Assembly: GCA_965659025.1 (NCBI GenBank)
Contig: CBFHTW010000001.1
Coordinates: 1-56,442 of the forward strand
From: Minisyncoccia bacterium
Lineage (GTDB): Bacteria > Patescibacteriota > Minisyncoccia > Phycocordibacterales > UBA2100
Direction: 5' to 3'
Length of the DNA stretch: 56,442 nucleotides
In this document: positions 3,652 through 56,342 of the stretch, piece by piece
Numbering within the stretch: position 1 is the stretch's first letter
Layout of the letters: every line of letters begins with the position of its first letter
Notes under the pieces: model-generated
What the model was told of the DNA's origin: nothing
What the model saw: the letters and a program-made list of their open reading frames with translations, nothing else
Databases searched by the model: none
Position numbers and translations under genes: made by a program

Positions 3652-5690
3652 GCCTGTTTTTTCTTTGTAGCATGCTCCTGGACCATGCTTTCTTCAAGTT
3701 TACGAATTTCGTCGCGCAGGATGGCCGCGGTCTCAAAGTCCAGTTCATCTGCGGCGGCGTGCATTTCTCGCCGCTTCTGTGCGATGACTTTCTTTACATC
3801 GCCGCCAAAAGCGGCGGTATCGTCGCGCACCAGCCGAGACACCGCGCGCTCGCGCGCTCTCTGAATATCCCCGACAATGTCGTGAATTTTCTTCTTGATG
3901 GTCTGCGGAGTAATGCCATGCTCCGTGTTATAGGCCATTTGAATGGTGCGGCGGCGGTTGGTTTCTGCAATTGCTCGCTCAAGCGAGCCTGTCATGGTGT
4001 CGGCATACACCACGACCCGCCCAAGCACATTGCGCGCCGCGCGACCGATAGTCTGGATGAGCGATGTCTCACTGCGCAAAAATCCTTCCTTGTCCGCGTC
4101 CAGAATGCCCACAAGCTCAACTTCGGGCAAGTCCAGCCCCTCGCGCAGAAGGTTGACCCCCACAAGCACGTCAAACGCCCCACGACGAAATTCCGTGAGA
4201 ATCTCTATGCGCTCTATGGTCTTTATGTCGCTGTGAATGTACCTGGCGCGCACCTGCCTTTCTTTGAGAAATTCTGCAAGGTCCTCCGCCATTTTCTTGG
4301 TGAGCACCGTCACGAGTGAGCGGCCGCCGCGCTTCGTTACCATCTCGGCTTCTTTGATAAAGTCGCGCACCTGCCCTTCATATGAGTCGCTAGAGACAAC
4401 ATGGCGCACCAAAATCTCCGGATCAATGAGCCCCGTCGGTCTAATCACTTGTTCTATCGGAATGCCGCTGTGTTCTAGCTCATACCGGCCCGGTGTTGCG
4501 GAGGTGTATATGACAGGACCCACACGCGCTTCAAATTCCGCAAACATGAGCGGTCTGTTGTCTACCGCGCTCGGCAAGCGAAACCCGTGCTCCACAAGCA
4601 CGTTTTTGCGCGACCTGTCTCCGGCATACATTGCTCCGATCTGCGAAACCGTCACATGGGACTCATCAATCACGGTAAGAAAATCCGGCTTTCCATCTGC
4701 AGTATGTGGAAAATAATCTAAAAGCGAATACGGCGGTTCGCCGCTTTTGCGGCGGTCAAAGTGGCGAGAGTAATTTTCAATGCCGTTGCAGTATCCAAAC
4801 TCGCGAATCATGGAGATGTCCTGCCTCGTACGGCGCTTCAACCGCTCGGCTTCAAGAATTTTTCCGGATGCCTCAAACTCCTTAAGTTGCTGTTTTAATT
4901 CGGCCTCAATGTCAGAGAGTGCGGCTTCTTGTACCTCCTTCGGCGCCACATAATGCCGCGCGGGAAAAATAAACAACGTATCGCGAGTGGCCTTGATTTC
5001 GCGAGTCACATCGTCCAGCTCTTCTATCTTTGAGATATTTCCACCGGAGAGATCCACGCGATAAATCGCGCGCTCGTTGGCGGGCATGATCTCCACGCTA
5101 CCGCCAAGAGCGCGAAACGTACCCGGGCGTAAATCACCGGCCACTCTCTTGAACTGCATGGAAACAAGCCGACGCGTGATCGCGGCGCGGGTCATCACTT
5201 CTCCGCGCGTAAGTTTGAGATTTATCTTCTCGTATTCCGTGGGAGAGCCAAGCCCGTAAATGCATGAGACCGATGCGACGATGATGACGTCACCGCGCGT
5301 GAGGAGCGCCTGCGTAGCGGCATGCCGCAGGCGTTCAATGTCTTCATTGATCATCGCCTCCTTTTCTATAAACGTATCCGTAATCGGCACATAGGCCTCC
5401 GGCTGATAGTAGTCGTAGTATGAGACAAAATAGTGGACTGCCGCATCCGGAAAAAACTCTCTGTATTCCGCCGCAAGCTGTGCGGCGAGGGTTTTGTTGT
5501 GTGCGATGACAAGCGTCGGCTTGCCTGTCTGTGCAATGACATTTGCGATGGTAAACGTCTTACCTGAGCCTGTTACCCCAAGAAGCGTCTGATCGCGTTT
5601 GCCTGCGCGCAATCCAGAGACCAGCGAGTCAATCGCTTTCGGCTGATCGCCCGCCGGGGCATATCCAGAGGTAAGCGTAAACGTGGCCAT
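3648..5690 (-). CDS. uvrB: Excinuclease ABC subunit B (UvrB)
   Basis: The ORF-track start at 5735 is TTG. The ATG at 5690 gives MATFTLTSGYAPAGDQPKAI...LLGVTGSGKTFT, matching the canonical UvrB N-terminus. Also has YYDYYQPEAY and a C-terminal UVR motif (ELDFETAAILRDEI). Confidence 0.93.
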   Translation of the reverse strand: MATFTLTSGYAPAGDQPKAIDSLVSGLRAGKRDQTLLGVTGSGKTFTIANVIAQTGKPTLVIAHNKTLAAQLAAEYREFFPDAAVHYFVSYYDYYQPEAYVPITDTFIEKEAMINEDIERLRHAATQALLTRGDVIIVASVSCIYGLGSPTEYEKINLKLTRGEVMTRAAITRRLVSMQFKRVAGDLRPGTFRALGGSVEIMPANERAIYRVDLSGGNISKIEELDDVTREIKATRDTLFIFPARHYVAPKEVQEAALSDIEAELKQQLKEFEASGKILEAERLKRRTRQDISMIREFGYCNGIENYSRHFDRRKSGEPPYSLLDYFPHTADGKPDFLTVIDESHVTVSQIGAMYAGDRSRKNVLVEHGFRLPSAVDNRPLMFAEFEARVGPVIYTSATPGRYELEHSGIPIEQVIRPTGLIDPEILVRHVVSSDSYEGQVRDFIKEAEMVTKRGGRSLVTVLTKKMAEDLAEFLKERQVRARYIHSDIKTIERIEILTEFRRGAFDVLVGVNLLREGLDLPEVELVGILDADKEGFLRSETSLIQTIGRAARNVLGRVVVYADTMTGSLERAIAETNRRRTIQMAYNTEHGITPQTIKKKIHDIVGDIQRARERAVSRLVRDDTAAFGGDVKKVIAQKRREMHAAADELDFETAAILRDEIRKLEESMVQEHATKKKQA

Positions 5691-5735
5691 GCCAGACACT
5701 CTAACAGGAACGTGCCTGACCTGCGAGATTTCCAA

Positions 5736-6992
5736 TTATTCCAGTGTGAGCACCGCAATAAAACGTTTTCCGCGTTTGAGAAGCGCTATGGGAGACGTCT
5801 GAAAATCTTCCTGCATCAATTCCCTGTTTGCGTCAGAGACTTTTGCGCCGTTTAGCGTAACCGCGCCATCGTCTATAAACTGACGCGCTTCGCGCTTTGA
5901 CGTGGCAAGAGCGGCGCGCACAAGCACGTCACTGAGCACCTCGCCGCGGCGCACAGCGCAAGAAGGCGCTTCGCGCGTAATGACGTCGCGCTCCGCCGGG
6001 CCAAGCGTCGCAAGATCCGCACTACCAAAGAGGGCTTCAGACACCTTCTCCACAGATACCGCGACGGATTCTCCGTGAACCAGCGCCGTCACTGTGCGCG
6101 CGAGAAGCCGTTGTGCCGCGCGCCTGCCTTTGTCTGTATTGTGCACCTCCATTGCCGATGCGATGTCCGATGCAGGGAGCGCGGTCATCTTGAGCAAATA
6201 TTCCTCCACTGCCTCGTCATCAGTATTGAGCCAAAACTGATAGAACTGAAATGGCGACGTCTTCTTCGCATCCAGCCATACCGCGCCGCCCTCGCTTTTG
6301 CCAAACTTCTTTCCTGTCGCGGCGTTGATGAGAAGTGGTAAAGAAAACGCGTACGCAACGCGGCCGGTCTTTCGTCGGATCAGATCAATGCCAGAGACCA
6401 TGTTGCCCCACTGGTCGGACGCCCCAATCTGCACATCGCACTGCTTTTCTTGATGCAGGTGCAGGAAATCGTACGCTTGCAAAAGCATGTAGGAAAATTC
6501 CGTATATGAGATACCCTGCTCCTGGTTTTGTAATCGTTCGCGCACCGAGTCGCGCTGGAGCATTGCATTCACAGAAAAATATTTTCCAACGTCGCGTAAA
6601 AACGATATGAGATCAAGTTTGCCAAGCCACTCTAAATTATTGACCATCGTGAATGATCCTCCGGCAAAGAGCGTCTGTGCTTGGGCCGAGACGGCCGCGG
6701 CGTTATTGGCGATTGTCTCCGCATCTAACAGATTTCTCTCTTCGCTCTTCCCGGAGGGGTCGCCAATCATCCCCGTACCGCCGCCCACAAGCAAAATGAC
6801 CGCGTGTCCATCTTCTGCAAAACGCCGCAAGACAAGCATCGCCTGCAAGTGCCCTACATGGAGAGAATCAGCCGAAGGATCAATGCCCAGGTACACGGTA
6901 CGCTTGGGACCGTCGGTTATCTCTTCAAGCGTCTCGCTTGAAAACTGATACACGTACCCGCGTTCGCGTAAGACTTCAGACAGCGTTTGCAT
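5736..6992 (-). CDS. tyrS: Tyrosine--tRNA ligase
   Basis: 418 aa. Class I HIGH-type motif (DSLHVGHL), KFGKS (KMSKS-type) motif and a C-terminal S4-like domain. Confidence 0.93.
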   Translation of the reverse strand: MQTLSEVLRERGYVYQFSSETLEEITDGPKRTVYLGIDPSADSLHVGHLQAMLVLRRFAEDGHAVILLVGGGTGMIGDPSGKSEERNLLDAETIANNAAAVSAQAQTLFAGGSFTMVNNLEWLGKLDLISFLRDVGKYFSVNAMLQRDSVRERLQNQEQGISYTEFSYMLLQAYDFLHLHQEKQCDVQIGASDQWGNMVSGIDLIRRKTGRVAYAFSLPLLINAATGKKFGKSEGGAVWLDAKKTSPFQFYQFWLNTDDEAVEEYLLKMTALPASDIASAMEVHNTDKGRRAAQRLLARTVTALVHGESVAVSVEKVSEALFGSADLATLGPAERDVITREAPSCAVRRGEVLSDVLVRAALATSKREARQFIDDGAVTLNGAKVSDANRELMQEDFQTSPIALLKRGKRFIAVLTLE

Positions 6993-6999
6993 GACGATA

Positions 7000-7764
7000 C
7001 TATACCATTTTGCGCGCCGAGAGCATCAAAAACAGGGGGAATTCTTTTCGCGCCTCGTCTTCTGCGTGGGCGCGCGGCCCTTTCTCGCTTTTCTTGTGTG
7101 AAATCCATTCTTCCAAAGCGGTTATTGCAAACCCTGCCTTTGCAAGCGCTTTACAATATACCTGAAGCGGCCGGTGGAAGGATGTGGTCGTGGGCGCGCC
7201 TGCGCGCGCACCCGGATTCATCTCTATGTCCGCACTGCTTTCAGACATGTATCCATCCAGGCGACGGTACTGAACCTTCCCCTCGTCATCCCAACCCCAT
7301 GAAGAGCGTTTTGGGATTCTAAGTACAGGATGATTGAGCACGATAAGAAAACGCCCGCCAGGGACAAGCACGCGCGCGGCCTCGCCTATCGCCTCCGCCA
7401 CGCGCGCAATGTTTTGGAGCGCAAGTACGCACACCACTGCATCAAACGATTTTTCTTCGTACGGAAGAGCGTCAGCACTCGCCACTTGAAACTCCACTTC
7501 GTTTCCGTCTTGTGTGTTCGCCTGTTCTATCATCTCCGGCGCGATGTCCACTCCGCATACTTGTGCGCCAGATTCCGCAATTGCCTGTGCAAAAAAACCA
7601 TTACCACAACCAACCTCCAGCACGCGCATGTCGGAAGTGGGCGCGAGTACGCGAAGCACATTCGGCAAAAGTACCTTCACATGATATGAATCTGGCGCAT
7701 GCACAAACGAGGCATCGTACACCTCGGCCACACGCCCCCATGATTCCTGCCGTCTCTTACTCAT
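7000..7764 (-). CDS. Class I SAM-dependent methyltransferase (Methyltransf_11-like)
   Basis: VLEVGCGNGFFAQAI...GVDIAPEMIEQA SAM-binding motif. Start moved to the ATG at 7764 (MSKRRQESW), which overlaps the upstream stop by 8 nt (ATGAGTAA). The longer ORF-track N-terminus overlaps the neighbouring gene. Confidence 0.8.
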   Translation of the reverse strand: MSKRRQESWGRVAEVYDASFVHAPDSYHVKVLLPNVLRVLAPTSDMRVLEVGCGNGFFAQAIAESGAQVCGVDIAPEMIEQANTQDGNEVEFQVASADALPYEEKSFDAVVCVLALQNIARVAEAIGEAARVLVPGGRFLIVLNHPVLRIPKRSSWGWDDEGKVQYRRLDGYMSESSADIEMNPGARAGAPTTTSFHRPLQVYCKALAKAGFAITALEEWISHKKSEKGPRAHAEDEARKEFPLFLMLSARKMV

Positions 7765-8173
7765 AGGATTCTCTAAAATCTCCAATGCCCTTTTCTTCCT
7801 CTTTCGCACGCACGCCTTCTTCGTCAAGTCCGAGATAGTGTCCCACCTCGTGCCACACGGTATCCGCGACGATGGTGCGTATCTTTTCCACATCCCCGTC
7901 CGCGGCCTCCTCAATGGGCTGTTTAAAGAGAGTGATGGAATCAGGAAGCGGCATACCCACGCCATACGCTTCTCCGCGCGCCGTCAAAGGAATGCCTCGG
8001 TACAACCCGAGCAATGTCTCACCAGAATCCGGATCTATACCCTGCTCTTTGAGATCCTCTCTACCCGGCCTATCTTCAATCAGAATAGCGACATTGTTGA
8101 TGCGTTCGCGCACCCAGCTTGGCAGACGCTCGTACCCCTCCTCTACCAACTTCTCAAACTCTTCCGTAGGCAT
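7757..8173 (-). CDS. Zincin-like metallopeptidase family protein (HExxH, Zincin_1/DUF1025-like)
   Basis: 138 aa with a HEVGH motif near the C-terminus and an acidic N-terminal half. Resembles small possible-zinc-metallopeptidase proteins. Confidence 0.7.
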   Translation of the reverse strand: MPTEEFEKLVEEGYERLPSWVRERINNVAILIEDRPGREDLKEQGIDPDSGETLLGLYRGIPLTARGEAYGVGMPLPDSITLFKQPIEEAADGDVEKIRTIVADTVWHEVGHYLGLDEEGVRAKEEEKGIGDFRESYE

Positions 8174-8237
8174 GAAGCTATCCTACGTCTTTTTTCCGCA
8201 ATCCGCACGCCCGCGGCATCTGTGCTTAAATGGATAC

Positions 8238-8804
8238 ATGCGCACCGATGATGAGCTTATTGTTGCGATACGACACGGGGAAACCGCCGCTCTTGAGGAA
8301 TTGGTACAACGGCACATAGACTCCGTGTATCGTGTGGCCTTGCGAGTTACGGGCAATCGCGACGACGCCGAAGATGTGGCGCAACATGCGTTTGTGAATG
8401 CATGGAAGGCAATCGGCTCATTTCGCCTTGGAGAAAATTTCCGAGTATGGATTGCTCAAATCACTCGCAACGCGGCCATAGACAGTCTTCGCAAAAAGCG
8501 GGACGTGCCGCTTTCATCTTTTACCCAGGGCGATGATGAGGCGGAGCCGTTTGCGATCGTTGACGACGCACCATCCCCGGAAGAACACGCGGTGCAGTAT
8601 GAGTCGCAACGACACGTGCAGAAATTGCTTTCAATACTGCCGAAAGACGATCAAGAAATACTCCTTTTGCACTACAGCGATGGGCTGACATTTCGCGAGA
8701 TAGGTGAGGTACTTGGCGCGCCTCTACATACCGTCAAGAGCCGACACCGACGGGCACTCAAACGCATGCAGGAAGAATGGGAGCGGACACATGCACCAAA
8801 ATAA
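8238..8804 (+). CDS. ECF-type RNA polymerase sigma-70 family factor
   Basis: Start set at the ATG at 8238 (MRTDDELIVAI...). Region 2 (DAEDVAQHAFVNAWK) and region 4 HTH (LTFREIGEVLGAPLHTVKSRHRRALKRM). The upstream part of the 310-aa ORF is antisense to the neighbouring gene. Confidence 0.85.
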   Translation: MRTDDELIVAIRHGETAALEELVQRHIDSVYRVALRVTGNRDDAEDVAQHAFVNAWKAIGSFRLGENFRVWIAQITRNAAIDSLRKKRDVPLSSFTQGDDEAEPFAIVDDAPSPEEHAVQYESQRHVQKLLSILPKDDQEILLLHYSDGLTFREIGEVLGAPLHTVKSRHRRALKRMQEEWERTHAPK

Positions 8805-12871: not shown

Positions 12872-15070
12872 TTATTTCGCCACGCGGACGGCTTCGTCAA
12901 ACTTCACCGACAAAATCTTAGAGACCCCGTCGGTATCCATAGTAACACCATACAGCTCCCCCGCCGCCGTCATCGTCGCGCGATTGTGCGTGATAACGAT
13001 AAGCTGGGATTTGGAGGAAAGTTCACGAATCATGTCCGCGTACCGACGACTATTGGCCTCATCAAGCGCGGCGTCCGTCTCATCCAATATGAGAAACGGC
13101 GGAGGATTCACCTGAGACATCGCAAAAATAAGCGCGATTGAGGTAAGCGCTCGCTCACCGCCAGAGAGCACCTCCAAGCCGCGCACTTTTTTGCGCGGCA
13201 AAGATACGAAAATGGAAACCCCTGCGTACAGCTCGTCTTCTTCATCTTCCGGCATTTCATCATCTTCATCACCATCGCGCACCGCGCGCGCCCGCGGCTT
13301 TTCTACAGAAAGTTTTGCACTGCCGCCGCCGAAGAGCTTGGTGAAAAAAAGGTGAAGCGCTTCATTGATCCGAACCAGGCCTTCGGTAAATTTGGTGTCC
13401 ATCGTCTCTTCAAGTTCCGCGATGATGTGGCGAAGTTTTTCAATGGAAGCCTCCAAATCACTGACCTCCCGCGCAAGGAATTCGTCGCGCTCTGTGGTAT
13501 GACGAAATTCGCGTACCACTTCGTCGCCGTTTCCGACCCCCGATTCCTCAATCTTTATCTTGAGGCGTTCAATCGCCCGGCGCCGTTTTTCTTGCTCACT
13601 CCTGCTTTCGCTGAGCGCACCTTCAGGAATACCCGCCTTTTGCCAGCCATGCACACCTGCGCCGATAAGGGTGATGCCCTCGCGCACCTCCTCTTCAAAT
13701 GATTGACGTGCCGCGGATATTTCACTTTGGCGGCGCTCCAGAGAAGCGAGTCTCGTCGCCACCTCTTTTCTTTGCGACTCATGCACCATGATGGTGCGCT
13801 GTGCCTCGTGTTGTGCCTCGCGCAAATCCTCGCCGGCCTTCCGCACAGTCGCAAGCTCCTGTTCAATGCGCTCTTCTTCGGCAGTTGCCTGTGCAAGCTT
13901 TTCAGTGAGAGCGGCGACCTGTTGCGCGTCGCCTTTTGGTGCGGCGTGATCGGCTGATGGAAGGACTGCGCGAAACGCGACAATCTCGCGGCGGGCGTCG
14001 TCATACCGACCGGCCGCGATATGCGCTTCAATTGTCTCAAGCAACGAACGAACGCGGGCCGCAGAAACCTGCGTCTCCACGCCTTCCTGCGTCGTCTTGA
14101 ATTCCATCATCGCCTCGGCTCGTCCGAGCTCGCGCATTGTCTCTTCGCGAATGCGCCGCGCCGATGCTCGCCTATCTTCAAGAGCGCGGAGTCTATTCGC
14201 GTGTTCTGCGCTCTCATCTGGCGTACCTGGATTGTGTTTTTGTACGTGTGCGCGAACCTGCGCAATGCGCTCGTCTGCTTCTTTCAGCTCCGCACGCACC
14301 GCCGCCGTCTCTGCGGCAACAAGCGTGCTCTCTTGTTCTATGTACGCGTGTTCTCGCGAGAGATACTCAGAGAGACGCACCGAGAGATCTTCTTTGACTT
14401 CTCTCGCCTTCTCTATCTTTTCCACCTGCGCGCGCAAAAAATGCAGATGCGGCGCAAGTTCGCGCCGCAGTGATTTTGCCTTATCCAAATTTGTCTCTGT
14501 TTCTACCAACTGGCGTTCGCTCTCCATTTTCTTGTGCTGGTAGAGCTTTAGGCCGAGCGCATCTTCTATCATCTCCCGACGCTGACGCGGCGAAGCGCCG
14601 AGGATTCTGTCTGCCTCGCCTTGCGAGATGATCTGATACCCAGAACCGCCGATGTTGGCCCCCGCAAGCAAACGAATGACATCCTTAAGGCGTACTTGCG
14701 AACCGTTGAGTAGGTATTCGTTTTGCCCGTCGCGATGCACGACGCGCTCAATCACTACTTCCTTAAACTCTAAATCTAACAATGGCTTGCCCGATCGGCC
14801 GGGTGTGTTGTCAAAAGTCACTTTGACGGCCGCTCTATTCTGTCGCGCCATGGCGGGCGAACCACCCCAAATGAGATCTTCACCGCGCTTACTGCGTAAT
14901 GATTTCATGGACTGCTCACCGAGTACAAAACGAAACGCCTCCGCCACGTTGGATTTTCCAGAGCCGTTTGGCCCGACAACCGCAGAAATAGGCGAGGTAA
15001 AGGCAAGTGTCGCCTTTTTGCCAAACGACTTAAAACCAGTGAGCTCTATGGATTTCAACGCCAAAAACAT
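12872..15070 (-). CDS. smc: SMC-family chromosome segregation ATPase, short form without a recognisable hinge
   Basis: SMC N-terminal head (LTGFKSFGKK...VVGPNGSGKSNVAEAFRFVLGEQS) and C-terminal head (LSGGERALTSIALIFA...LILDETDAALD). The middle is E/A/R-rich coiled coil. It lies downstream of rnc, as in the Bacillus rnc-smc arrangement. Confidence 0.85.
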   Translation of the reverse strand: MFLALKSIELTGFKSFGKKATLAFTSPISAVVGPNGSGKSNVAEAFRFVLGEQSMKSLRSKRGEDLIWGGSPAMARQNRAAVKVTFDNTPGRSGKPLLDLEFKEVVIERVVHRDGQNEYLLNGSQVRLKDVIRLLAGANIGGSGYQIISQGEADRILGASPRQRREMIEDALGLKLYQHKKMESERQLVETETNLDKAKSLRRELAPHLHFLRAQVEKIEKAREVKEDLSVRLSEYLSREHAYIEQESTLVAAETAAVRAELKEADERIAQVRAHVQKHNPGTPDESAEHANRLRALEDRRASARRIREETMRELGRAEAMMEFKTTQEGVETQVSAARVRSLLETIEAHIAAGRYDDARREIVAFRAVLPSADHAAPKGDAQQVAALTEKLAQATAEEERIEQELATVRKAGEDLREAQHEAQRTIMVHESQRKEVATRLASLERRQSEISAARQSFEEEVREGITLIGAGVHGWQKAGIPEGALSESRSEQEKRRRAIERLKIKIEESGVGNGDEVVREFRHTTERDEFLAREVSDLEASIEKLRHIIAELEETMDTKFTEGLVRINEALHLFFTKLFGGGSAKLSVEKPRARAVRDGDEDDEMPEDEEDELYAGVSIFVSLPRKKVRGLEVLSGGERALTSIALIFAMSQVNPPPFLILDETDAALDEANSRRYADMIRELSSKSQLIVITHNRATMTAAGELYGVTMDTDGVSKILSVKFDEAVRVAK

Positions 15071-15123
15071 TGGTGTTCAGTATATCAAACAAAACAAGGC
15101 TGTGAGCGAAAAGTGGGAGGACT

Positions 15124-15400: not shown

Positions 15401-16090
15401 CTACCACCCACGCACCTCCAACGCCTTCTCCGCGGCCGCCTGTTGTGCCTCTTGTTTTGAGTTCCCATCCCCCTTGGCGATGAGTTCCTGTCGGAGATAC
15501 ACCCCCGCGGTAAAGCGCTTGTCATGATCCGGCCCCGACTGCGCCAAGAGCTCATACGATGGCGTTACCCCCTCGTGCTCTTGCGCCGCCTCTTGAAAAC
15601 GACTCTTCGCGTCTTGCCAGAGACGCTTCGCGACCACGTCGTCTGTTTTATGAAAAAGCTGAGCGGCGATAAAATCTCGCGCCGCGCCGTACCCATGATC
15701 CAAATACAAAGCGCCGATGAGCGCCTCAAACGCATTGGCGAGGATTATTTGCCGCGCGCGACCGGTATCCTTTGCCTCGCCGCGAGAGAGCAGAAGAAAA
15801 TCATTGATGCCGAGCCGCGTCCCCGCATCGGCGATAGACTGCGTGTTCACCAGCGCGGCTCGGTAGGCCGTCAGCTCGCCCTCCTGTTTTTCCGGATACT
15901 TCGCATACAAAAATTCCGTAACGACAAGTTCAAGCACCGCATCACCAAGAAACTCCAGGCGCTCGTTGTGCCCGGCTTTTAATTCGCGATGCTCGTTGAT
16001 GTAGGAGCGATGCGTAAAGGCTTGCTGTAGCAACCCCTTATCGTTGAATGAAACGCCGATGCGCTCCTCAAAACGGGACAGATCACTCAT
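15401..16090 (-). CDS. rnc: Ribonuclease III
   Basis: 229 aa. RNase III signature ERLEFLGDAVLELVV and a C-terminal dsRBD. Confidence 0.93.
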   Translation of the reverse strand: MSDLSRFEERIGVSFNDKGLLQQAFTHRSYINEHRELKAGHNERLEFLGDAVLELVVTEFLYAKYPEKQEGELTAYRAALVNTQSIADAGTRLGINDFLLLSRGEAKDTGRARQIILANAFEALIGALYLDHGYGAARDFIAAQLFHKTDDVVAKRLWQDAKSRFQEAAQEHEGVTPSYELLAQSGPDHDKRFTAGVYLRQELIAKGDGNSKQEAQQAAAEKALEVRGW

Positions 16091-16099
16091 ATGCCAAAA

Positions 16100-17023
16100 T
16101 TACACGGTCGCCTTTTTGGCGAGAATGTTTATCGCCTTGGTAACAACCGGCAGGATGTCATCATAAAAATTCAGATCGCCCACACTGGCAAGCGGAAACC
16201 ACTGCGCGTCATCCAGCCCTCCTTCGCGCTTAAGCTGGAGGTCGTCAAACGCCGCCCGCGCTAAAAAGTATGTAGCATGCCGGCGCTTCTTCCCCTGCGG
16301 GTTGCTCGCGTCTTTGTCGTTGGCGATGTATTCATTTTCTCCGAGCGTGTCCTCCACAGAGACAGACAGGCCGATTTCTTCCTGCACCTTCCGCTTCACG
16401 CCGTCCTCGTGTTTCTCGTCCTGTTGAAGGCGACCTTTGGAAAGCGTCCAATGGCCGAAGATGTCATGCACGAGTGCGAGGTACACTCCGTCGTCTGAGC
16501 GCGCATACACCACAGCTCCGACAAGTTTTTCCACCGGCATCTTGCTCGGGTCAACGGTCACGCGTTTCTTGCGCTCCCCGCCGTCTTGTTTGCCTGGCTC
16601 ACCAAGCTCCACATACACGGCCCCAAGCACGCCGTTGACGAAACGAGATGAGGACGAACCGCCAAAGGCCTTGGCGAGCTCTATTGCCTCATTGATAGCC
16701 ACCTTGGCAGGCACTTGCACACGGTCTGCATACAAAAGCTCCGCCAATCCAATGCGGAGTATGTTGCGGTCTATCGCCGCGATTTTCTCCAGGGGCCATT
16801 CCGGTGCCGCCTTTGCGATCACGGCATCTATCTCTTTTTGTTTAGCGACGACCGTGCGTACCAGCGACTGCATAAAAGACGTGTCGTTGTCGCGCGCACC
16901 GAATTCGCTTGCATAGAGTGCGATGCGCTCCAGCATCGTTTCTTCCGACATCGGCTGATCCGATGCATCTCTCTCAAAAAGCACTTGCAGGACGACCGAA
17001 CGCGCAATGTGTCTGTTTGCCAT
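16100..17023 (-). CDS. nusB: NusB-like antitermination domain fused to a NUDIX hydrolase domain
   Basis: N-terminal roughly 145 aa are NusB-like (ARSVVLQVLFERD...AIDRNILRIGLAELLY...INEAIELAKAFGG..SRFVNGVLG). The C-terminal half carries a Nudix box, GRLQQDEKHEDGVKRKVQEEIGL. The ATG at 17023 is preferred because the ORF-track start at 17035 is TTG. Confidence 0.85.
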   Translation of the reverse strand: MANRHIARSVVLQVLFERDASDQPMSEETMLERIALYASEFGARDNDTSFMQSLVRTVVAKQKEIDAVIAKAAPEWPLEKIAAIDRNILRIGLAELLYADRVQVPAKVAINEAIELAKAFGGSSSSRFVNGVLGAVYVELGEPGKQDGGERKKRVTVDPSKMPVEKLVGAVVYARSDDGVYLALVHDIFGHWTLSKGRLQQDEKHEDGVKRKVQEEIGLSVSVEDTLGENEYIANDKDASNPQGKKRRHATYFLARAAFDDLQLKREGGLDDAQWFPLASVGDLNFYDDILPVVTKAINILAKKATV

Positions 17024-17077: not shown

Positions 17078-17344
17078 TTATTCGGCGGCGTTATCCCCAC
17101 CACGCTTTTGCTTGCCGCTTCCTGCGAGCGCCTTTTCCTTGCGTGCCGAGCGGCGTTCTTTGCGCTTTGCTCCGGCAACGACGTCAATAACGACTGTCTC
17201 GCCGTATTTGCCACAGGAGGCACAGGCACGGTGTGGGAGCTTTTCCGCGCCGCATGCACAGCGGGAAACGCGTACCGCCGAGAGACCGTGGTGGCTCCGG
17301 CGTTTTCTTGTCTTTGAGCGGTTTGCCCGCATTCGTACAACCAT
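17078..17344 (-). CDS. rpmF: 50S ribosomal protein L32 with a basic C-terminal extension
   Basis: MVVRMRANRSKTRKRRSHHGLS...CACGAEKLPHRACASCGKY is L32. It is followed by a roughly 30-aa K/R-rich tail. The ORF-track start is an upstream TTG. Confidence 0.85.
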   Translation of the reverse strand: MVVRMRANRSKTRKRRSHHGLSAVRVSRCACGAEKLPHRACASCGKYGETVVIDVVAGAKRKERRSARKEKALAGSGKQKRGGDNAAE

Positions 17345-17352
17345 GGGCGCGA

Positions 17353-18415: not shown

Positions 18416-18586
18416 GTATCCTCCTTTTTTCAAGTGCCTACCGGCGAGCATACACCCTTGTACGAAAGTAACGCAAGCGGCTTTGCCATGCCTACATTCC
18501 ATACGTCCAACATGTCCGTTTTTTGAAATTATCCGTCCACATTGGCGATTCATGCCAAATGTTGGTGTGGGGGTATACTGGGTGCC

Positions 18587-39303: not shown

Positions 39304-39338
39304 AGTCGCACCAGTATATCAAACAACCACCAGCGCGG

Positions 39339-40037: not shown

Positions 40038-40063
40038 ATGTGTGCGCGGGATTGTAGCACAGC

Positions 40064-41056: not shown

Positions 41057-41066
41057 ATGGATATAG

Positions 41067-41400: not shown

Positions 41401-41409
41401 AGTGCGAGC

Positions 41410-41438
41410 ACTATACGAAAAAAGCCGCTATTGCGCAA
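41410..41438 (-). promoter_or_regulatory. rpmE promoter TTGCGC-17-TATAGT, with the -10 ending 9 nt before the ATG
   Basis: On the minus strand TTGCGCAATAGCGGCTTTTTTCGTATAGTGCTCGCACTATG. No SD is present. Confidence 0.55.
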
Positions 41439-42142: not shown

Positions 42143-42208
42143 TAGTACCTCCTATATTGCTATCCTGTCCGAAACGTACCTAAAGTAGAACAGGTATGCA
42201 AGCGTCTG

Positions 42209-43570
42209 TTATTTCTGCTCCAGAATGTTTATGTCGGCTTGGTAGCGATCGGCAATAGCCATCACATTATCACCATAGAACGCGACCGAGGATTTGTACC
42301 AATTTCCCCCCGCGAAGTATTTGAGTGCCGCCTTTCGCTCCTCTGCGCGCACGCCAGTGTCGGCACCGTTGTCGGCCATGAGAAGCGATGTGGCAAACAC
42401 AGCCGTGCGCCCATCCCAAGGATTCGGCGTGGTAACACCAAGCATTCCCGCCAAACGCTTCTGATATAACACCCATGTAGAAGGAATGAATTGCGCCGGA
42501 CCCATGGCTCCGCCATAGCCGCCAGTTCCCTGTGGGCACGAAACAAGAGTCGTGAACCAGTCTAGTCCGAGCGCCTCTGTGACCTGCTGAAACGGCACAG
42601 TATCGCGCGGGGCCTTCATCACGGTAGCAAATACACGACCGGTATTTTTGCCGACACCACCGCCTGTCTGCAAGTTCTGCACATAGCAAGAACCAACATT
42701 AGCTCCGAGATTCGTTTCCTGAGTGAGAATCGCGAGTGTGACAGCCGGGCGAACGCCGGTTTTTTGTGATGCCTCCTTGGCATATTGATATGCCGTACCA
42801 AAGGGAATTGCGGCCGAGTCACGCAGACCGAAGAGTGCGGTGCGGATTTGCGCCGCTTGTTTTTCTCGTTCGGCGATGAGTTGTTGGTACGTCTTTTCCT
42901 CTCCCTTAGTTGTAGAAAGTAGTTTATTTTTCTCTTTTTGATCGTCCTGGATTGCTTGTTTCGCCAATACCTGCACACTCTTCACCTTTTGCACTTCCTC
43001 CTGTTTGTCTTCAAGCTCCATCTTTTTTGAAGAAAGATTTGTGCGGAGCTCCGCAAGTGTGTCAAAGGATTCCTGAAGAGCCGACTGCACCTGCGCCGCG
43101 TGGTCAAATTCTTGAAATGTTTCGGGAATACCGCCGGTCAGGGCAAGAGCAATGAGCGGCGTGTCATCTATCGCCCGCTGGCGACGAATCAACTGCGCAA
43201 GCGTGCGCTCACCATCAGAGACACGCCGATCTACTTGGATAATCTCTGTCTTCTTTTCTGCAATGTCACCCCCTAGCTGTGCAATTGCGATATCGCTCTT
43301 TTTGATCTGCAGTTGTGCGGTTTTGATTTTTGTATTGAGTATGGATATGTCACGCTCCAGTGTCGCGCGCTGCTGTTGTAAATCGCCGAGTACCCCCTTT
43401 TTTTGCGCAATGTCGCTCTCTATTTGCGCAAGCTGTGCCTGCAATGCCGCTCTTTGATCGGTGAGCGTCTGTGCATGAGCAATCGCCCACGAGCTATGCT
43501 GTATAGGAAGCAGTGCCGCGCCACACACGAGCGCCACAAGAAAAATCTGCGCGTGCCTGCGCCATGTCAT
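42209..43570 (-). CDS. Secreted coiled-coil protein with a C-terminal lytic transglycosylase (SLT_2/MltB-like) domain
   Basis: Signal/TM segment, then a roughly 200-aa Q/L/A coiled coil. The C-terminal domain has LAILTQETNLG (catalytic Glu context) and GGAMGPAQFIPSTW. The ATG at 43570 is preferred because the ORF-track start at 43576 is GTG. Confidence 0.65.
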   Translation of the reverse strand: MTWRRHAQIFLVALVCGAALLPIQHSSWAIAHAQTLTDQRAALQAQLAQIESDIAQKKGVLGDLQQQRATLERDISILNTKIKTAQLQIKKSDIAIAQLGGDIAEKKTEIIQVDRRVSDGERTLAQLIRRQRAIDDTPLIALALTGGIPETFQEFDHAAQVQSALQESFDTLAELRTNLSSKKMELEDKQEEVQKVKSVQVLAKQAIQDDQKEKNKLLSTTKGEEKTYQQLIAEREKQAAQIRTALFGLRDSAAIPFGTAYQYAKEASQKTGVRPAVTLAILTQETNLGANVGSCYVQNLQTGGGVGKNTGRVFATVMKAPRDTVPFQQVTEALGLDWFTTLVSCPQGTGGYGGAMGPAQFIPSTWVLYQKRLAGMLGVTTPNPWDGRTAVFATSLLMADNGADTGVRAEERKAALKYFAGGNWYKSSVAFYGDNVMAIADRYQADINILEQK

Positions 43571-43601
43571 GCGCACTATTGTATCACCCCAAATAGAATT
43601 G

Positions 43602-44228
43602 TTAGGCGTTTTCTGTCGCCTCCGGAGACGACGCCTCCTTCGCTGGAGCAGTTTCTGGGACTGGCGCTACAGGCTCTGGCTTTTCTTCCTTGACGGCGGC
43701 AATAACGACAATCAACTCCTCCGGATCAATCTTAAGTGTTGCGCTCTTCGGCAATGCGATGTCCTTGGCAAAGATGTGGTCGCCGATTTGTTCAAGGGAA
43801 GAGAGATCAATGATGAGTGTGTGAGGGAGTTCGGCGGGAGACACTGAGATTTCCACTTCATGCACGGTCTTGACCACCACGCCGCCAGATTTCTCAGCCG
43901 GGGCAACGCCAATAAATTCAAGCGGGATAGAAACCTGTACCTTTTGGCCCTTGGCGATGGCGTAGAGATCTACATGCAAAGGAGTACCTGTTACCGGATG
44001 AAATTGCACCTCGTGGATGAGTACTTGCTTTTCGTCTCCGAGGCCCTGTACGGCGATGACCGTTGTCTCGCCCGCGGTCTTCCACACGCGTTCAAAGTCG
44101 CGCTGTACGAGTGCGACCGGCGTTGAAGTTTCTTTTGCACCGTAGACAACGGCAGGCAAAAGACCCTCCTCACGCAAGGTGGTCGGATTGGTGTCCTTAC
44201 TGCGCAGTTGCGCTACGATTGTTGGCAT
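43602..44228 (-). CDS. rplY: 50S ribosomal protein L25/general stress protein Ctc
   Basis: LREEGLLPAVVYG...VQFHPVTGTPLHVDL, with a C-terminal acidic/Pro tail. Confidence 0.9.
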   Translation of the reverse strand: MPTIVAQLRSKDTNPTTLREEGLLPAVVYGAKETSTPVALVQRDFERVWKTAGETTVIAVQGLGDEKQVLIHEVQFHPVTGTPLHVDLYAIAKGQKVQVSIPLEFIGVAPAEKSGGVVVKTVHEVEISVSPAELPHTLIIDLSSLEQIGDHIFAKDIALPKSATLKIDPEELIVVIAAVKEEKPEPVAPVPETAPAKEASSPEATENA

Positions 44229-44246
44229 GGTCGGAAGTATACGGAT

Positions 44247-46424: not shown

Positions 46425-47670
46425 CGGCCCCCATGTAACCCCGCAGTACCTCGGGGATCGCGACAGAACCATCAACTTGCTGATAGTTTTCAACGATGTG
46501 ACAAAGGATACGCGGGAGCGCAAGCGCGGTGTTGTTGAGAGAATGCGCATAGCGAAGCGTCCCGTCCGTGTCGCGATACCGAATATTGAGCCGACGAGTT
46601 TGGAAGTCATGGAAGTACGACGCCGAATGCGTCTCCCGATATTTCTTTTCAGACGGCATCCATACTTCAAGGTCGTACTTCTTCACCTGGCCGAGCCCCA
46701 GATCACCGCCGCAGTTAACCACCACATGATATGGAAGCTTCAACTCCTGCAGAAGCGCCTCGGCGTTGGCGGTGATTTCCTCATGCAGTCGCACCGACTC
46801 TTCATGATTCGCCCCGCACAAGACCACCTGTTCAAATTTTAGAAATTCATGGATGCGAAACACTCCCTTGGTATCTTTGCCGTGGCTTCCGGCTTCGCGC
46901 CTAAAGCAAGGTGAGAAAGAGAAAAACTTCAGAGGGAGTTGTGAACGATCAAGGGTCTCATTCATGTAATACCCCATGGTTGCCACTTCAGCGGTGCCGG
47001 CGAGGTACTCGCCGTCTTGTGTCTTGTACAAATCCTCCTCGCTCTGTGGCAAATAGCCGGTACCGATAAACGGCTCGCGACGCACAAGTGACGGCACGAT
47101 CATGGGAACGAAACCCTTGCCAGTGAATCGTTCAATGACAAACCTCTCCAAAGCCCATGCGAGCTGTGCGCCCGCGCCTTTCAAGAAATATCCGCGAAAG
47201 CCAGCCACCTTTGCTCCGCGTTCAAAATCGGCCATGCCGAGTGACACCATGAGATCAACATGGCTCTTGGGGGTAAACGTGAATGTAGTGGCCTCGCCCC
47301 ACACTTTCACCTCTTTGTTGTCAGCGTCACTATCGCCATCTGGCACGGAGATGTCGGGCACATTGGGCACCTGCACCATAAGCGCGCGCCATTCTGTCAT
47401 GACACCGACCATGCTCTCTTCCGCTGTTTTGAGTGTTTCTTTGGCCCCCTGCATCTGTGCGATGAGCGCGTCTCGTTCGGCTCCCTGCGCCGCGGCGATG
47501 CCTTGCGATGCGGCGTTTTGCGCGGCGCGCAACTCGTCAATGTTCTGTTGGAGCGCTTTGCGGGAATCGTCTAGCGAGATAAGCTTGTCAATGTCAATGG
47601 TGATGTGCTTCTTTTTTGCGCCGGCAATCACGATGTCCTTGTTCTCGCGGATGAATTTGATGTCTAGCAT
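46405..47670 (-). CDS. serS: Serine--tRNA ligase
   Basis: MLDIKFIRENKD..., an N-terminal coiled-coil arm and class II motifs (FRREAGSHGKDTKGVFRIHEF; GLGQ...). The ATG at 47670 is used. The ORF-track N-terminal extension has no homology. Confidence 0.93.
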   Translation of the reverse strand: MLDIKFIRENKDIVIAGAKKKHITIDIDKLISLDDSRKALQQNIDELRAAQNAASQGIAAAQGAERDALIAQMQGAKETLKTAEESMVGVMTEWRALMVQVPNVPDISVPDGDSDADNKEVKVWGEATTFTFTPKSHVDLMVSLGMADFERGAKVAGFRGYFLKGAGAQLAWALERFVIERFTGKGFVPMIVPSLVRREPFIGTGYLPQSEEDLYKTQDGEYLAGTAEVATMGYYMNETLDRSQLPLKFFSFSPCFRREAGSHGKDTKGVFRIHEFLKFEQVVLCGANHEESVRLHEEITANAEALLQELKLPYHVVVNCGGDLGLGQVKKYDLEVWMPSEKKYRETHSASYFHDFQTRRLNIRYRDTDGTLRYAHSLNNTALALPRILCHIVENYQQVDGSVAIPEVLRGYMGADVITAN

Positions 47671-47690
47671 AGTGTTAGAATTGTAGCATT

Positions 47691-50934: not shown

Positions 50935-50995
50935 TGCGCCGATTCACCCCACGCGTCGCTTGTGCATGCGCCCCACTCGGGTGTATATACATCAT

Positions 50996-52516
50996 ATGCG
51001 TACGCTCCAAGATATAACGACAGCGATGGGCGACAAGGACGACGCGAGTGTTTCGCTCGTCTCTCAGGCGTATGAATTTGCCAAAAACGTACACAAAGAC
51101 CAAAAACGATACTCAGGTGAACCATATTTCATACACCTAGCTGAAGTCGCGCACATGCTCGCCACCATGGGCATGGACGCGCCTGCTATTGCAGCCGGAC
51201 TCCTCCACGATTCGGTAGAAGACATGGGCGTGCTTCCTGCAACCATTGAAAAAGAGTTTGGCGCCGAGGTGCGATGCCTTGTAGACGGAGTAACGAAGCT
51301 CGGCACAGTGCGATACCGCGGCCTGGATAGGCACATTGAGTCGTTGCGCAAGTTCTTCGCGGCCACCGCCAATGATTTGCGCGTACTCATCATCAAGCTC
51401 ACCGACCGCTTGCATAACGTGCGCACGCTTTCCTTTGTGCCCGCACACAAGCAAAAGCGCATCGCCATGGAGACGTTGGAAATTTACGCGCCGATCGCCG
51501 ACAGGCTCGGTATGAGCGTGATGAAGACCGATCTGGAGGACGCGTCGTTTCCTTTCGCCTACCCAAAGGAATATGAGAAGGTGCGAGCCCTTGTAAAAGA
51601 GCGCAAAAAAGAGAACGACAAGCGCTTGCAGAAAATGGAACACGATCTGAAGCGTGAGCTTGCCGACGCGGGGTTGCGTAATTTTCGCGCCGAAGCGCGC
51701 ATCAAGGGCATATATAGTCTCTTCAGAAAGCTAGAGCGCAAAGACTGGGACATCACCACTATCTTTGACATTCTTGCGTTACGCGTGATTTTGCCGAGTA
51801 CATCAGACTGTTATGCGGCACTTGGCGTCATCCATGCACACTGGCGTCCGGTACCGGGAAAAATAAAAGACTACATCGCATTCCCCAAGCCCAATGGCTA
51901 CCAGTCCATTCATACCACTGTGTATTCCGGAGATGGCGGGGCGATAGAGATACAATTGCGCACGGAAAGCATGCATAAAGAAGCGCAGTATGGTATTGCC
52001 GCGCACCTCACCTACAAGGAACGTCAGGGTAGCGGAGGCGCAAGCGGACGCGCAATGGAATGGGTGCGGCAGTTTTTCTCTTCACGCAAACACACTGCCC
52101 CCGATACCACAGCCGAGCAAAATCCTGATGAAGTGGTTCCTCAATGGATGCAGGACCTCGCGCAAGTGCATACCGAGGCCCCAGAATCAGACGAATATTT
52201 GGACACGCTCAAGGCAGACTTCTTCAACCACCGAGTGTTTGTGTTCACGCCGCGGAGCGACGTTATAGATTTGCCACTGCATGCGACGCCTGTGGATTTC
52301 GCGTATTGTATCCACTCCGACGTGGGCAACCACATGGCCGGCGCGCGCGTCAATGGCAAGATGGTGAGCTTGGACACGCCGCTGAAAAACGGCGACTTGG
52401 TAGAGATTATTCAAAAGCCTTCCGCGAGGCCATCTCATAAGTGGCTGGACATGGCAAAGACGACCCTCGCAAAAAAACACATACGCACCGCCCTGGCAGA
52501 ACAGCGCAACAAGTAG
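50996..52516 (+). CDS. RelA/SpoT homolog (HD hydrolase, synthetase and TGS domains; no ACT domain)
   Basis: HD motif (LLHDSVED), synthetase domain (YIAFPKPNGYQSIHTTV) and TGS (VFVFTPRSDVIDLP...GDLVEII). The protein ends shortly after TGS. Confidence 0.9.
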   Translation: MRTLQDITTAMGDKDDASVSLVSQAYEFAKNVHKDQKRYSGEPYFIHLAEVAHMLATMGMDAPAIAAGLLHDSVEDMGVLPATIEKEFGAEVRCLVDGVTKLGTVRYRGLDRHIESLRKFFAATANDLRVLIIKLTDRLHNVRTLSFVPAHKQKRIAMETLEIYAPIADRLGMSVMKTDLEDASFPFAYPKEYEKVRALVKERKKENDKRLQKMEHDLKRELADAGLRNFRAEARIKGIYSLFRKLERKDWDITTIFDILALRVILPSTSDCYAALGVIHAHWRPVPGKIKDYIAFPKPNGYQSIHTTVYSGDGGAIEIQLRTESMHKEAQYGIAAHLTYKERQGSGGASGRAMEWVRQFFSSRKHTAPDTTAEQNPDEVVPQWMQDLAQVHTEAPESDEYLDTLKADFFNHRVFVFTPRSDVIDLPLHATPVDFAYCIHSDVGNHMAGARVNGKMVSLDTPLKNGDLVEIIQKPSARPSHKWLDMAKTTLAKKHIRTALAEQRNK

Positions 52517-52517
52517 G

Positions 52518-53471
52518 CTACAGAGAAAAGTTGTTTATTGAATAGAGGTCTTCGGCCGGCGTTTCCGGCTCTACGGGAGCGGGACTCTCTGGCACCTCAA
52601 CACCACCAGAGGCAAGTGCGGCCGCGGCATCGCCCCTTTGCTGTCTGCGAGCAAGCACCTCGCGCAACGCGGCGAGATCATCCGGTGAGAAGAAGTCAAT
52701 CAGCACCTTTCCTCCCACTTCTTTTTTCTCAATGCGCACGCGCGTACCCAGGGCTTCGGTGAGTTCTTTTTCTATAGAAATAAGGTCTGGAGTGAGATCG
52801 TGTCGGCGCACGCGATCCACCGCCACGCGGCGCGCGAGCCCCTCCGCTTCGCGCACGTTGAGTTTGCGCGTGATAATGTCTTTGAATAGCACTTGCTGTT
52901 CTTCGGGGCGATCAATGAGCATGAGAAGCGGACGCGTGTGTCCTTCGTTGATCTCCCCGTCTCCCAAGGCTTGGAGCATTTCTTCCGGCAAAAGAAGCAT
53001 GCGGAGTGTGTTGGAGACGTATTCGCGGCTCTTGCCGACTTTTGCGCCAATGTCTGTCTGCTTCATGTTGAATTCTTTGGCGAGCTTCTCAAATGCGCGC
53101 GCCCGATCCACCGGATTGAGATCTTCGCGCTGAAGGTTTTCAATAATCGCGAGCTCAAGCTTCATTTTGTCGCTCTCTTCGGGCGCGCGAATGACCACGG
53201 GTACCTGCTGGAGTCCGGCAAGCTTGGAGGCGCGCAAACGGCGCTCGCCGGCGATAAGCTCGTAGTCTACGCGAATCCCCTCGCCCGGCTGTTCTGTTTC
53301 CCGGCGCACCACCGTAAGCGGTTGAAGCACCCCATATTGGCGAATGGAGTCGGCGAGCGAGGCAAGCGCGGCTTCATCAAATGTTTTGCGCGGCTGGTAA
53401 GGATTTGGCTTGATGCGATCGGTCTCCACCCAGAAGATTGAATTGCTGTAGTATCCTCCCTGCTCTGTCAT
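52518..53471 (-). CDS. parB: Chromosome partitioning protein ParB/Spo0J
   Basis: ATG at 53471. IKPNPYQPRKTFDE...SIRQYGVLQPL...LIAGERRLRA ParB box and an HTH (QTDIGAKVGKSREYVSNTLRML). Confidence 0.9.
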   Translation of the reverse strand: MTEQGGYYSNSIFWVETDRIKPNPYQPRKTFDEAALASLADSIRQYGVLQPLTVVRRETEQPGEGIRVDYELIAGERRLRASKLAGLQQVPVVIRAPEESDKMKLELAIIENLQREDLNPVDRARAFEKLAKEFNMKQTDIGAKVGKSREYVSNTLRMLLLPEEMLQALGDGEINEGHTRPLLMLIDRPEEQQVLFKDIITRKLNVREAEGLARRVAVDRVRRHDLTPDLISIEKELTEALGTRVRIEKKEVGGKVLIDFFSPDDLAALREVLARRQQRGDAAAALASGGVEVPESPAPVEPETPAEDLYSINNFSL

Positions 53472-53526
53472 GGCGGATAGTATATCATGGTTGCGATGGA
53501 CACTTTTTCCTATACACTGGCCGGAG

Positions 53527-53610
53527 GGGCGAGTGTCGGAATTGGTAGACGACCGCGACTCAAAATCGCGTGAGCGCAAGCTCGTGGGGGTTCGATTCCC
53601 CCCTCGCCCA
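53527..53610 (+). tRNA. tRNA-Leu (anticodon CAA), class II with a long variable arm
   Basis: The GGGCGAG/CTCGCCC acceptor stem, anticodon loop CTCAAAA, variable arm TGAGCGCAAGCTCGT and T-arm GGGGGTTCGATTCCCCC. No CCA is encoded. Confidence 0.9.
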
Positions 53611-53611
53611 C

Positions 53612-56001: not shown

Positions 56002-56042
56002 ATGAAAACAGCGGCCACAAGGGCCGCAATTTCCATTGGGTG

Positions 56043-56113
56043 CGGGCGCTGAGGGAATCGAACCCCCACTGGCGGTTTTGGAGACCGCTGTTCTACCACT
56101 AAACTAAGCGCCC
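56043..56113 (-). tRNA. tRNA-Trp (anticodon CCA)
   Basis: GGGCGCTTAGTTTAGTGGTAGAACAGCGGTCTCCAAAACCGCCAGTGGGGGTTCGATTCCCTCAGCGCCCG folds as a cloverleaf. It lies downstream of rpmG. Confidence 0.9.
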
Positions 56114-56152
56114 TGTGCGCTTGAGTATAGCCCAGCAGTGGCCACTGCGCGA

Positions 56153-56311
56153 CTATTTTTTGACCTCCTTGTGCTTGTTGTGCGCGCGGCACCAACGGCA
56201 AAACTTCTTGAGTTCTATTTTGCGCTCCACAAGCTTTCTGTTCGTGCGTGACCAATAATTGGTGCGGCCGCACTTGGTGCATGCCAGTTTGATGAGCTGA
56301 TCCTGCGACAT
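56153..56311 (-). CDS. rpmG: 50S ribosomal protein L33
   Basis: MSQDQLIKLACTKCGRTNYWSRTNRK...KKFCRWCRAHNKHKEVK, with two CxxC pairs. The ATG at 56311 is preceded by TATAGT plus 9 nt. Confidence 0.88.
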   Translation of the reverse strand: MSQDQLIKLACTKCGRTNYWSRTNRKLVERKIELKKFCRWCRAHNKHKEVKK

Positions 56312-56342
56312 AGTGGTGCGACTATACCCGATTTCTCCTAGA

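Follow-up and report, generated by a model that had tools for sequence, protein, structure and literature searches.

Promoter -10 boxes next to start codons and probable leaderless mRNAs in a Kaiserbacteria-like bacterium whose 16S rRNA tail lacks CCUCC

Many genes of a bacterium of the Candidate Phyla Radiation (CPR) – studied here in a 56,442-nucleotide stretch of DNA (the window; positions 1 to 56,442 of the forward strand of contig CBFHTW010000001.1, GenBank assembly GCA_965659025.1) and in the remainder of its genome – carry a TAnnnT hexamer of the promoter -10 type 6-9 nt before the ATG and no Shine-Dalgarno (SD) sequence, and their mRNAs therefore probably have 5′ ends on the start codon or beside it. 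Contig C1, one of 39 in a 533-kb genome, forms the window; the genome is 88.9% complete and has 54% G+C. The host is assigned as an uncultured, groundwater-type, Kaiserbacteria-like member of the CPR, because the closest relatives of its GyrB protein (up to 81% identity) carry Candidatus Kaiserbacteria, Parcubacteria or Paceibacterota titles; we know of no cultured representative of the lineage.

We consider it very probable that initiation in this host is leaderless or near-leaderless, proceeding from extended -10 promoters that abut the ATG and without SD pairing. RNA polymerase would start on the A of the ATG or 1-3 nt before it, so that leaderless or near-leaderless mRNAs would come from about 38% of the genes overall and from roughly half of the uncoupled ones. 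Ribosomes would recognize the 5′-terminal AUG directly, with no SD pairing, in keeping with the loss of CCUCC from the 16S rRNA tail in the host and in all relatives of the order in which that tail was read. Genes within 10 nt of their predecessor that have neither box nor SD would be translated by coupling or re-initiation. A first-pass annotation of the window had proposed that leaderless mRNAs are pervasive, and this proposal gains support from what is established below – the motif, its spacing and enrichment, its promoter context of TGn and -35 flanks, the correctness of the start codons, conservation, and loss of the anti-SD sequence – together with the absence of SD signals and the boxes before tRNA genes; from these we infer where transcription actually starts and how initiation proceeds.

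Boxes before start codons

The boxes noted 6-9 nt before starts in the window reflect a genome-wide positional enrichment, which holds against both internal-ATG and shuffled controls. The gene set comprised 472 genes called with a simple codon-model open reading frame (ORF) caller; to avoid cherry-picking, the first ATG downstream of the preceding stop was taken blindly as the start (n=437), and 2043 in-frame ATGs inside genes served as the internal control. TANNNT begins at -12, -13, -14 and -15 in 13.3, 7.1, 3.4 and 5.9% of the blind first ATGs, respectively (130 genes, 30%), compared with a sum of 2.5% over the same four positions at internal ATGs and a genome average of 0.77% per position. 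TATACT, TACAAT and TATAAT predominate among the start-proximal hexamers; in the genome at large they are not common. A weight matrix left free to choose any ATG, GTG or TTG within the first 100 codons found a box in 182 of 472 genes (39%) versus 3.7% of internal 300-nt blocks. Circularity of the matrix was checked by two-fold cross-validation over contigs; 38% and 37% of genes then had a box 5-10 nt ahead of a candidate start, while the figure for internal 300-nt blocks was 2.5-4.1%. The spacer in the 182 genes is 5 nt in 4, 6 nt in 69, 7 nt in 52, 8 nt in 16, 9 nt in 31 and 10 nt in 10, and ATG accounts for 88% of the box-associated starts.

Such a peak might be an artefact of start choice, of in-frame TAA or TAG stops preceding first ATGs, or of AT-rich intergenic composition; the earlier starts were picked by eye, a hexamer at -12 shares the reading frame of the ATG, and intergenic DNA is AT-richer than coding DNA. 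We regard this as extremely unlikely, because the blindly chosen starts reproduce the peak, the out-of-frame position -13 is also enriched, and the starts are upheld by profile hidden Markov model coordinates (see below). A stop-codon origin of the -12 signal was rejected, because the hexamers are mostly the three named above, TAT- or TAC-initial, and the excess survives the removal of TAA- and TAG-initial hexamers: with TA[CT]NNT only, 91 of 459 genes carry a box, whereas shuffling the 40 upstream nt 1000 times gives 14.6±3.8 (at most 31), and a 7-fold excess near starts is seen relative to positions -50 to -21 upstream of the same genes.

Within the window, the 45 nt upstream of every candidate start were inspected and the claimed strings were searched. 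All 21 protein genes named in the first-pass annotation have the hexamer at the spacing it gave, including gyrB and rpsB, where the box lies 13 nt before the ATG, and its gene names (among them pheS at 35509, parB at 53471, the Zincin_1 protein, the SLT transglycosylase and the ECF sigma factor) are upheld by family searches. The boxes, with spacer and start codon, are as follows; 'profile' marks a gene matched in the profile searches, and 'additional' a gene absent from the earlier list.

5688..5706 (-), uvrB: tgtTAGAGT, 7 nt, ATG 5690; TIGR00631 profile starts 2 residues past the ATG
6990..7007 (-), tyrS: tggTATAGT, 6 nt, ATG 6992; profile; spacing kept in 14-15 of 17 orthologues
8171..8188 (-), Zincin_1 protein: TAGGAT, 6 nt, ATG 8173
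8223..8240 (+), ECF sigma factor: tgcTTAAAT, 6 nt, ATG 8238; sigma profiles start at the ATG
15068..15087 (-), smc: tgaTATACT, 8 nt, ATG 15070; profile
16088..16105 (-), rnc (RNase III): TAATTT, 6 nt, ATG 16090; additional
17342..17360 (-), rpmF (L32): TATAAT, 7 nt, ATG 17344; additional
18571..18589 (+), dnaE: TATACT, 7 nt, ATG 18587; NF004226 profile starts 1 residue past the ATG
22182..22200 (+), thrS, N-terminally short: tgcTACTAT, 7 nt, candidate ATG 22198; ATGs 22147 and 22189 also possible
29466..29486 (-), sortase: TTGACA-N17-TATAAT, 9 nt, ATG 29468; profile
32322..32346 (-), gyrB: tgcTATACT, 13 nt, ATG 32324; profile; no SD; implied leader about 6 nt
35507..35525 (-), pheS: TATAAT, 7 nt, ATG 35509
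35557..35575 (+), GT2 glycosyltransferase: tggTATAAT, 7 nt, ATG 35573; profile
36820..36840 (+), hypothetical protein of 233 aa: TATAGT, 9 nt, ATG 36838; additional
39301..39321 (-), tsf: tgaTATACT, 9 nt, ATG 39303; profile
40035..40059 (-), rpsB: tgcTACAAT, 13 nt, ATG 40037; NF008966 profile position 1 on the ATG
41054..41073 (-), prfA: TATACT, 8 nt, ATG 41056; profile
41398..41418 (-), rpmE: TATAGT, 9 nt, ATG 41400; position 1 of L31 profiles on the ATG
43568..43586 (-), SLT-domain lytic transglycosylase: tgaTACAAT, 7 nt, ATG 43570; family search
44226..44244 (-), rplY: TATACT, 7 nt, ATG 44228; profile
47668..47688 (-), serS: tgcTACAAT, 9 nt, ATG 47670; TIGR00414 position 1 on the ATG despite upstream GTG and TTG candidates
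50981..50998 (+), RelA/SpoT homologue (RSH): TATATA, 6 nt, ATG 50996; profile; final T of the box missing
53469..53487 (-), parB: tgaTATACT, 7 nt, ATG 53471; profile; ATGs farther upstream would overlap tRNA-Leu
56309..56329 (-), rpmG: TATAGT, 9 nt, ATG 56311; profile

The argument depends on the start codons being correct, and they were checked by translating each ORF from the upstream stop and reading the onset of the NCBIfam full-length profile. For about 17 window starts, profile position 1 falls on the box-predicted ATG or a few residues from it (uvrB, tyrS, smc, dnaE, gyrB, tsf, rpsB, rpmE, the ECF sigma factor, GT2, rplY, serS, RSH, parB, rpmG, topA and rnc), and the agreement persists in serS, dnaE and uvrB, which have GTG or TTG candidates upstream. 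Gene callers that expect a ribosome-binding site will misplace starts in such genomes, and distance from the -10 box is the better signal, as serS, dnaE, uvrB and parB illustrate.

Three of the listed genes encode housekeeping proteins that are short at the N terminus: thrS (22084-23454) matches TIGR00418 only from profile position 163 (418-436 aa), pheS (34760-35509) encodes 249 aa comprising the class II core only, and the prfA (40064-41056) alignment begins at profile position 34-42. The start codons of serS (47670, -) and a divergent 287-aa gene with a GTG start (47691, +) are separated by 20 bp; the serS TACAAT and the TAGAAT box of the 47691 gene overlap on opposite strands (47668-47693), and the -35 region of either gene would fall within the other. 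pheS (35509) and the GT2 gene (35573) form a comparable divergent pair, 63 bp apart.

Promoter context, tRNA genes and leader length

Judged by their flanks, the boxes are sigma-70-type -10 elements, often of the extended form TGnTAnnnT. TG is present at -3/-2 in 42% of start-proximal TANNNT hexamers versus 5.3% of hexamers of the same pattern in coding DNA; with hexamers chosen by pattern and distance only, T and G occur at these positions in 46% and 63%, respectively, and TT appears at -23/-22. The -35 signal is weak, with TTG 16-18 bp upstream in 22% (4% in the coding control) and -35 matches of at least 4/6 in 27% (9.6% in the control), and a textbook -35/-10 pair precedes the sortase gene. 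Uncoupled genes – those with an upstream gap of more than 10 nt or a divergent neighbour – have a box in 158 of 320 cases (49%, range 45-67%), as against just 14% of genes whose predecessor lies within 10 nt. When 11-40 nt separate two same-strand genes, the second has a leaderless-type promoter to itself in 67% of cases, and this promoter overlaps the end of the first. Tightly coupled genes, which have no SD, favour certain junctions, among them 16 overlaps of 4 nt (ATGA type) and many gaps of 2-10 nt. As regards gene expression in the CPR, almost all genes or short operons have a promoter of their own, in many cases one that overlaps the gene before.

A motif at the position of a ribosome-binding site, in a genome without a usable anti-SD sequence, could alternatively be the SD-independent signal that such a genome is expected to need: an A/U-rich ribosome-binding or translation-enhancer element on leadered mRNAs, like that of the Bacteroidota 'group B', and not a promoter. 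We find this very unlikely. TGn and TTG (the latter at 16-18 bp) flank the motif, it is 3-4 times rarer before coupled operon-internal genes, and it also precedes tRNA genes, which are untranslated; these features fit a promoter rather than a ribosome-binding motif. Moreover, other -10-like boxes are scarce upstream (25 matches at -80 to -17 for the 182 genes), and the box genes would otherwise be without a promoter.

The two tRNA genes of the window with such boxes are as first described:

53510..53611 (+), tRNA-Leu(CAA): TACACT 8 nt before the mature 5′ end
56042..56132 (-), tRNA-Trp(CCA): TATACT 10 nt before the mature 5′ end

Genome-wide, a box precedes the mature 5′ end of 21-24 of 40 tRNA genes by 8-12 nt (mode 10), compared with 6-7 nt for mRNAs, and the loci of relatives have a tRNA box peak at 8-10 nt (17 of 52). 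From this difference tRNA leaders of about 2-5 nt are expected; the tRNA genes would use the same promoters, and their short leaders would still be removed by RNase P. The speculation that dependence on RNase P is reduced finds no support, because RNase P RNA (an RF00010 match of 126.9 bits, contig C14) and RnpA (PF00825, 52.3 bits, contig C4) are both encoded and the boxes lie about 10 nt out. Loss of RNase P is likewise rejected, both genes having been found, and the box peak, at 10 nt rather than 6-7 nt, does not place transcription starts at tRNA position +1.

The same distances bear on whether mRNAs are strictly leaderless. The promoters could be genuine and yet most transcripts could have leaders of about 2-7 nt, with short-leader, SD-independent initiation: spacers of 9-10 nt occur in 41 of 182 genes, gyrB and rpsB have 13 nt (with the gyrB spacing conserved in relatives), and the 10 nt favoured at tRNA genes could mean that the polymerase starts later than 6-7 nt from the box. 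We think this unlikely as a description of most genes. Genes with a spacer of 6-7 nt (121 of 182) form the main mRNA peak, and 6-7 nt is the canonical distance from -10 box to start site in E. coli-type promoters; furthermore, the tRNA and mRNA spacings differ by about 3-4 nt, as expected if only tRNAs keep a short leader. In studies of mycobacteria, moreover, leaders of 5 nt or less are counted as leaderless, reportedly by Cortes and colleagues in 2013.

The layout leading to probable leaderless initiation is conserved among relatives. Of 17 tyrS orthologues, from 11 genera of the family (47-66% identity), 14-15 have a (TGn) box whose spacer to the ATG is 6-7 nt or, occasionally, 9 nt; the spacers differ in sequence while the distance from box to ATG stays. 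At gyrB, TGcTATACT followed by 12-14 nt and ATG is kept in many of 80 relatives, and in the 1.33 Mb surrounding gyrB in these relatives TANNNT occurs at a spacer of 6-9 nt in 27-31% of first ATGs versus 2.4-4.3% of internal ones.

Shine-Dalgarno signals and the 16S rRNA tail

The genes of leaderless type lack SD sequences, as the first-pass annotation observed: the SD core is found at 7% of them versus 8.8% of internal ATGs, with no enrichment, and at 4% of coupled genes. The host 16S sequence after helix 45 is GGATTCATTCCAAAC, not GGATCACCTCCTT, and its 3′ tail is GGAUUCAUUCC, without CCUCC. Among 28 relatives of the order in which the tail was read it is GGAWTWWTTCMAA, with CCTCC in none, while CCTCC is retained in 28 of 30 genomes of other CPR classes, with the tail GATCACCTCCTT. 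Upstream regions have no excess duplex stability with the host's own 16S tail in any gene class, and a modified SD matching that tail (GGAAUGA-like) was rejected, neither GGAAT nor GAATG being enriched. There is no TIGR01169 match for uL1 in the genome, which is, however, only 88.9% complete; an S1-like protein of 375 aa is encoded on contig C6.

The single 16S gene (contig C23, L001 1501-4170, outside the window) is interrupted twice, as is typical of the group. At roughly the equivalent of position 1390 it carries an insert of about 400 nt, and between GUCGUA and ACAAGG, immediately ahead of helix 45, lies a group I intron of 752 nt (RF00028, 54.8 bits) that contains a LAGLIDADG-like ORF; the 3′ exon then ends in the tail given above.

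A minority of genes looks different. Eight genes were initially described as having strong SD sequences (ATGs at 18415, 25634, 26189, 26778, 27184, 37553, 42142 and 45273), and (A)GGAGG is indeed present 5-8 nt before the ATG in all of them, but the classification is ambiguous for 37553, where an extended -10 box is also present. This gene (37535-37555) combines tGGAGGtc with a tgaTACACT whose spacer to the ATG is 7 nt; in that case its GGAGG would fall in the untranscribed spacer, and the gene may belong to the leaderless class. Others of the eight are:

25266..27245 (-), four small genes without a Pfam family: ATGs 25634, 26189, 26778 and 27184; (A)GGAGG 5-8 nt upstream, on longer leaders
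41498..42165 (-), HAD-like hydrolase: ATG 42142 preceded by tAGGAGGtacta; in 4 of 30 relatives
18011..18435 (-), orphan 134-aa gene: ATG 18415 preceded by aaaGGAGGatac; in 0 of 30 relatives

Some 27 accessory or orphan genes across the genome carry a canonical GGAGG; its position peaks sharply (GGAG at -10), and a -10 box is present 30-50 nt upstream. They are puzzling because the host's own 16S rRNA pairs poorly with GGAGG (about -4 kcal/mol, versus -8.7 for a canonical tail), and relatives that lack the anti-SD sequence have a GGAG peak too (27 versus a background of 4.7). The GGAGG genes are shorter (median 180 versus 264 aa) and have a higher GC3 (0.669 versus 0.596, p=4e-6), the five that were searched have no Pfam family, and the HAD and orphan genes are far more sparsely distributed among the 30 relatives than tyrS, which is in 29. 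The four homologues of 42142 in these relatives – a small sample – have GGGGAG- or GGGG-like purine runs. The GGAGG genes look like a gene pool apart, probably mobile or fast-evolving.

Several observations weigh against the leaderless reading. An SD-like mechanism may persist in spite of a tail without CCUCC, because some 27 genes bear a well-placed canonical GGAGG. A start-proximal box is missing from about half of the uncoupled genes, and weak boxes exist, with the RSH TATATA missing its final T and the uvrB TAGAGT scoring low. Spacers of 9-13 nt would give leaders of about 2-7 nt rather than 0, and the 9-nt peak and the 13-nt cases thus imply near-leaderless rather than strictly leaderless mRNAs. 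The thrS start is ambiguous by homology coordinates because the protein is without N-terminal domains, and the gene calls come from a simple in-house caller, not GeneMarkS-2 or Prodigal.

The reach of the layout was also considered. A small sample of 16 genomes from other CPR classes whose GATCACCTCCTT tail is intact, with about 35 genes taken from each, also has a TA[CT]NNT peak at -12 (7.5% versus about 1.5% per position), and the use of SD in these genomes is low but variable, from 3% to 40% of genes. Restriction of the leaderless signature to lineages that have lost the anti-SD sequence is thus unsupported, and the layout may be older and wider than that loss, because genomes with intact tails share the -12 peak. 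A more far-reaching account, which we offer tentatively and rather doubt, is that initiation has been rebuilt without SD throughout the order – 5′-terminal AUGs for first genes, re-initiation internally, and ultra-short tRNA leaders – with the GGAGG minority, which the host's own 16S tail cannot read, pointing to a reader still to be found or to a steady inflow of foreign genes whose translation takes a different route. Candidates for such a reader would be another rRNA segment, a protein or a specialized ribosome.

Comparison with known systems

Leaderless initiation has precedents well outside the CPR. In haloarchaea, Sulfolobus and mammalian mitochondria the initiation codon is the 5′ end of most transcription units, and SD pairing is either not needed or absent. 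Archaeal promoters, however, have a TATA box about 26 nt upstream and work with other initiation factors, and mitochondrial leaderless mRNAs arise by tRNA punctuation, whereas the host has bacterial extended -10 promoters. Nanoarchaeum equitans reportedly makes leaderless tRNAs without RNase P, as Randau and colleagues are said to have described in Nature in 2008. The host resembles it in having tRNA genes with their own promoter very near the mature 5′ end; it differs in that the box lies about 10 nt before that end, a 2-5 nt leader is expected, and RNase P RNA and RnpA are encoded.

The SD-scarce Bacteroidota (group B; category ii in PMC10783764) are similar to the host in that most genes lack SD. 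They nevertheless retain CCUCC, their mRNAs have leaders, and an A-rich motif stands before every gene. The GeneMarkS-2 group B motif precedes operon-internal genes as well (PMC6028130); the host motif is, by its context, a promoter confined to transcription-unit starts, and CCUCC is gone. The layout itself is that of GeneMarkS-2 group C (Lomsadze et al. 2018, PMC6028130), comprising Actinobacteria such as Mycobacterium tuberculosis and Streptomyces, and Deinococcus-Thermus, in which a Pribnow box lies 6-8 nt before the first genes of 25-50% of operons. The host shares with it a box at 49% of uncoupled genes, spacers mostly of 6-7 nt and a strong preference for ATG. In group C, however, the remaining genes are described as using SD-type ribosome-binding sites and the 16S rRNA keeps CCUCC, whereas the coupled genes of the host are without SD (4% versus 8.8%), only about 27 positioned GGAGG sequences are found genome-wide, and the tail lacks CCUCC. 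The lineage is also different, the host belonging to the Patescibacteria/CPR with genomes of 0.5-1 Mb, and the text of PMC6028130 names no CPR lineage.

The phenomenon is accordingly of a known kind, familiar from Actinobacteria, Deinococcus and archaea, and the window adds confirmation rather than a new principle. The host fits a published subgroup of Parcubacteria with a 16S tail without CCUCCU and lacking uL1 (Tsurumaki, Saito, Tomita and Kanai 2022, RNA 28:1041, PMC9297842), for which the rRNA loss is reported and SD helices are said probably not to form; the host is similar in being a member of Parcubacteria with a tail without CCUCC. Loss of the anti-SD sequence in part of the Parcubacteria is thus published, but we found no literature linking CPR, Patescibacteria, Saccharibacteria or Parcubacteria to leaderless mRNAs; PMC9297842 was absent from the results for 'leaderless', the word itself not having been searched in its text. 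As far as the consulted part of PMC9297842 goes, it provides the rRNA loss and not the way genes start, and the layout of promoters abutting ATGs supplies the missing half. Genome-wide in the host and conserved across genera, this layout offers a concrete and testable answer to how translation starts in Parcubacteria without an anti-SD sequence.

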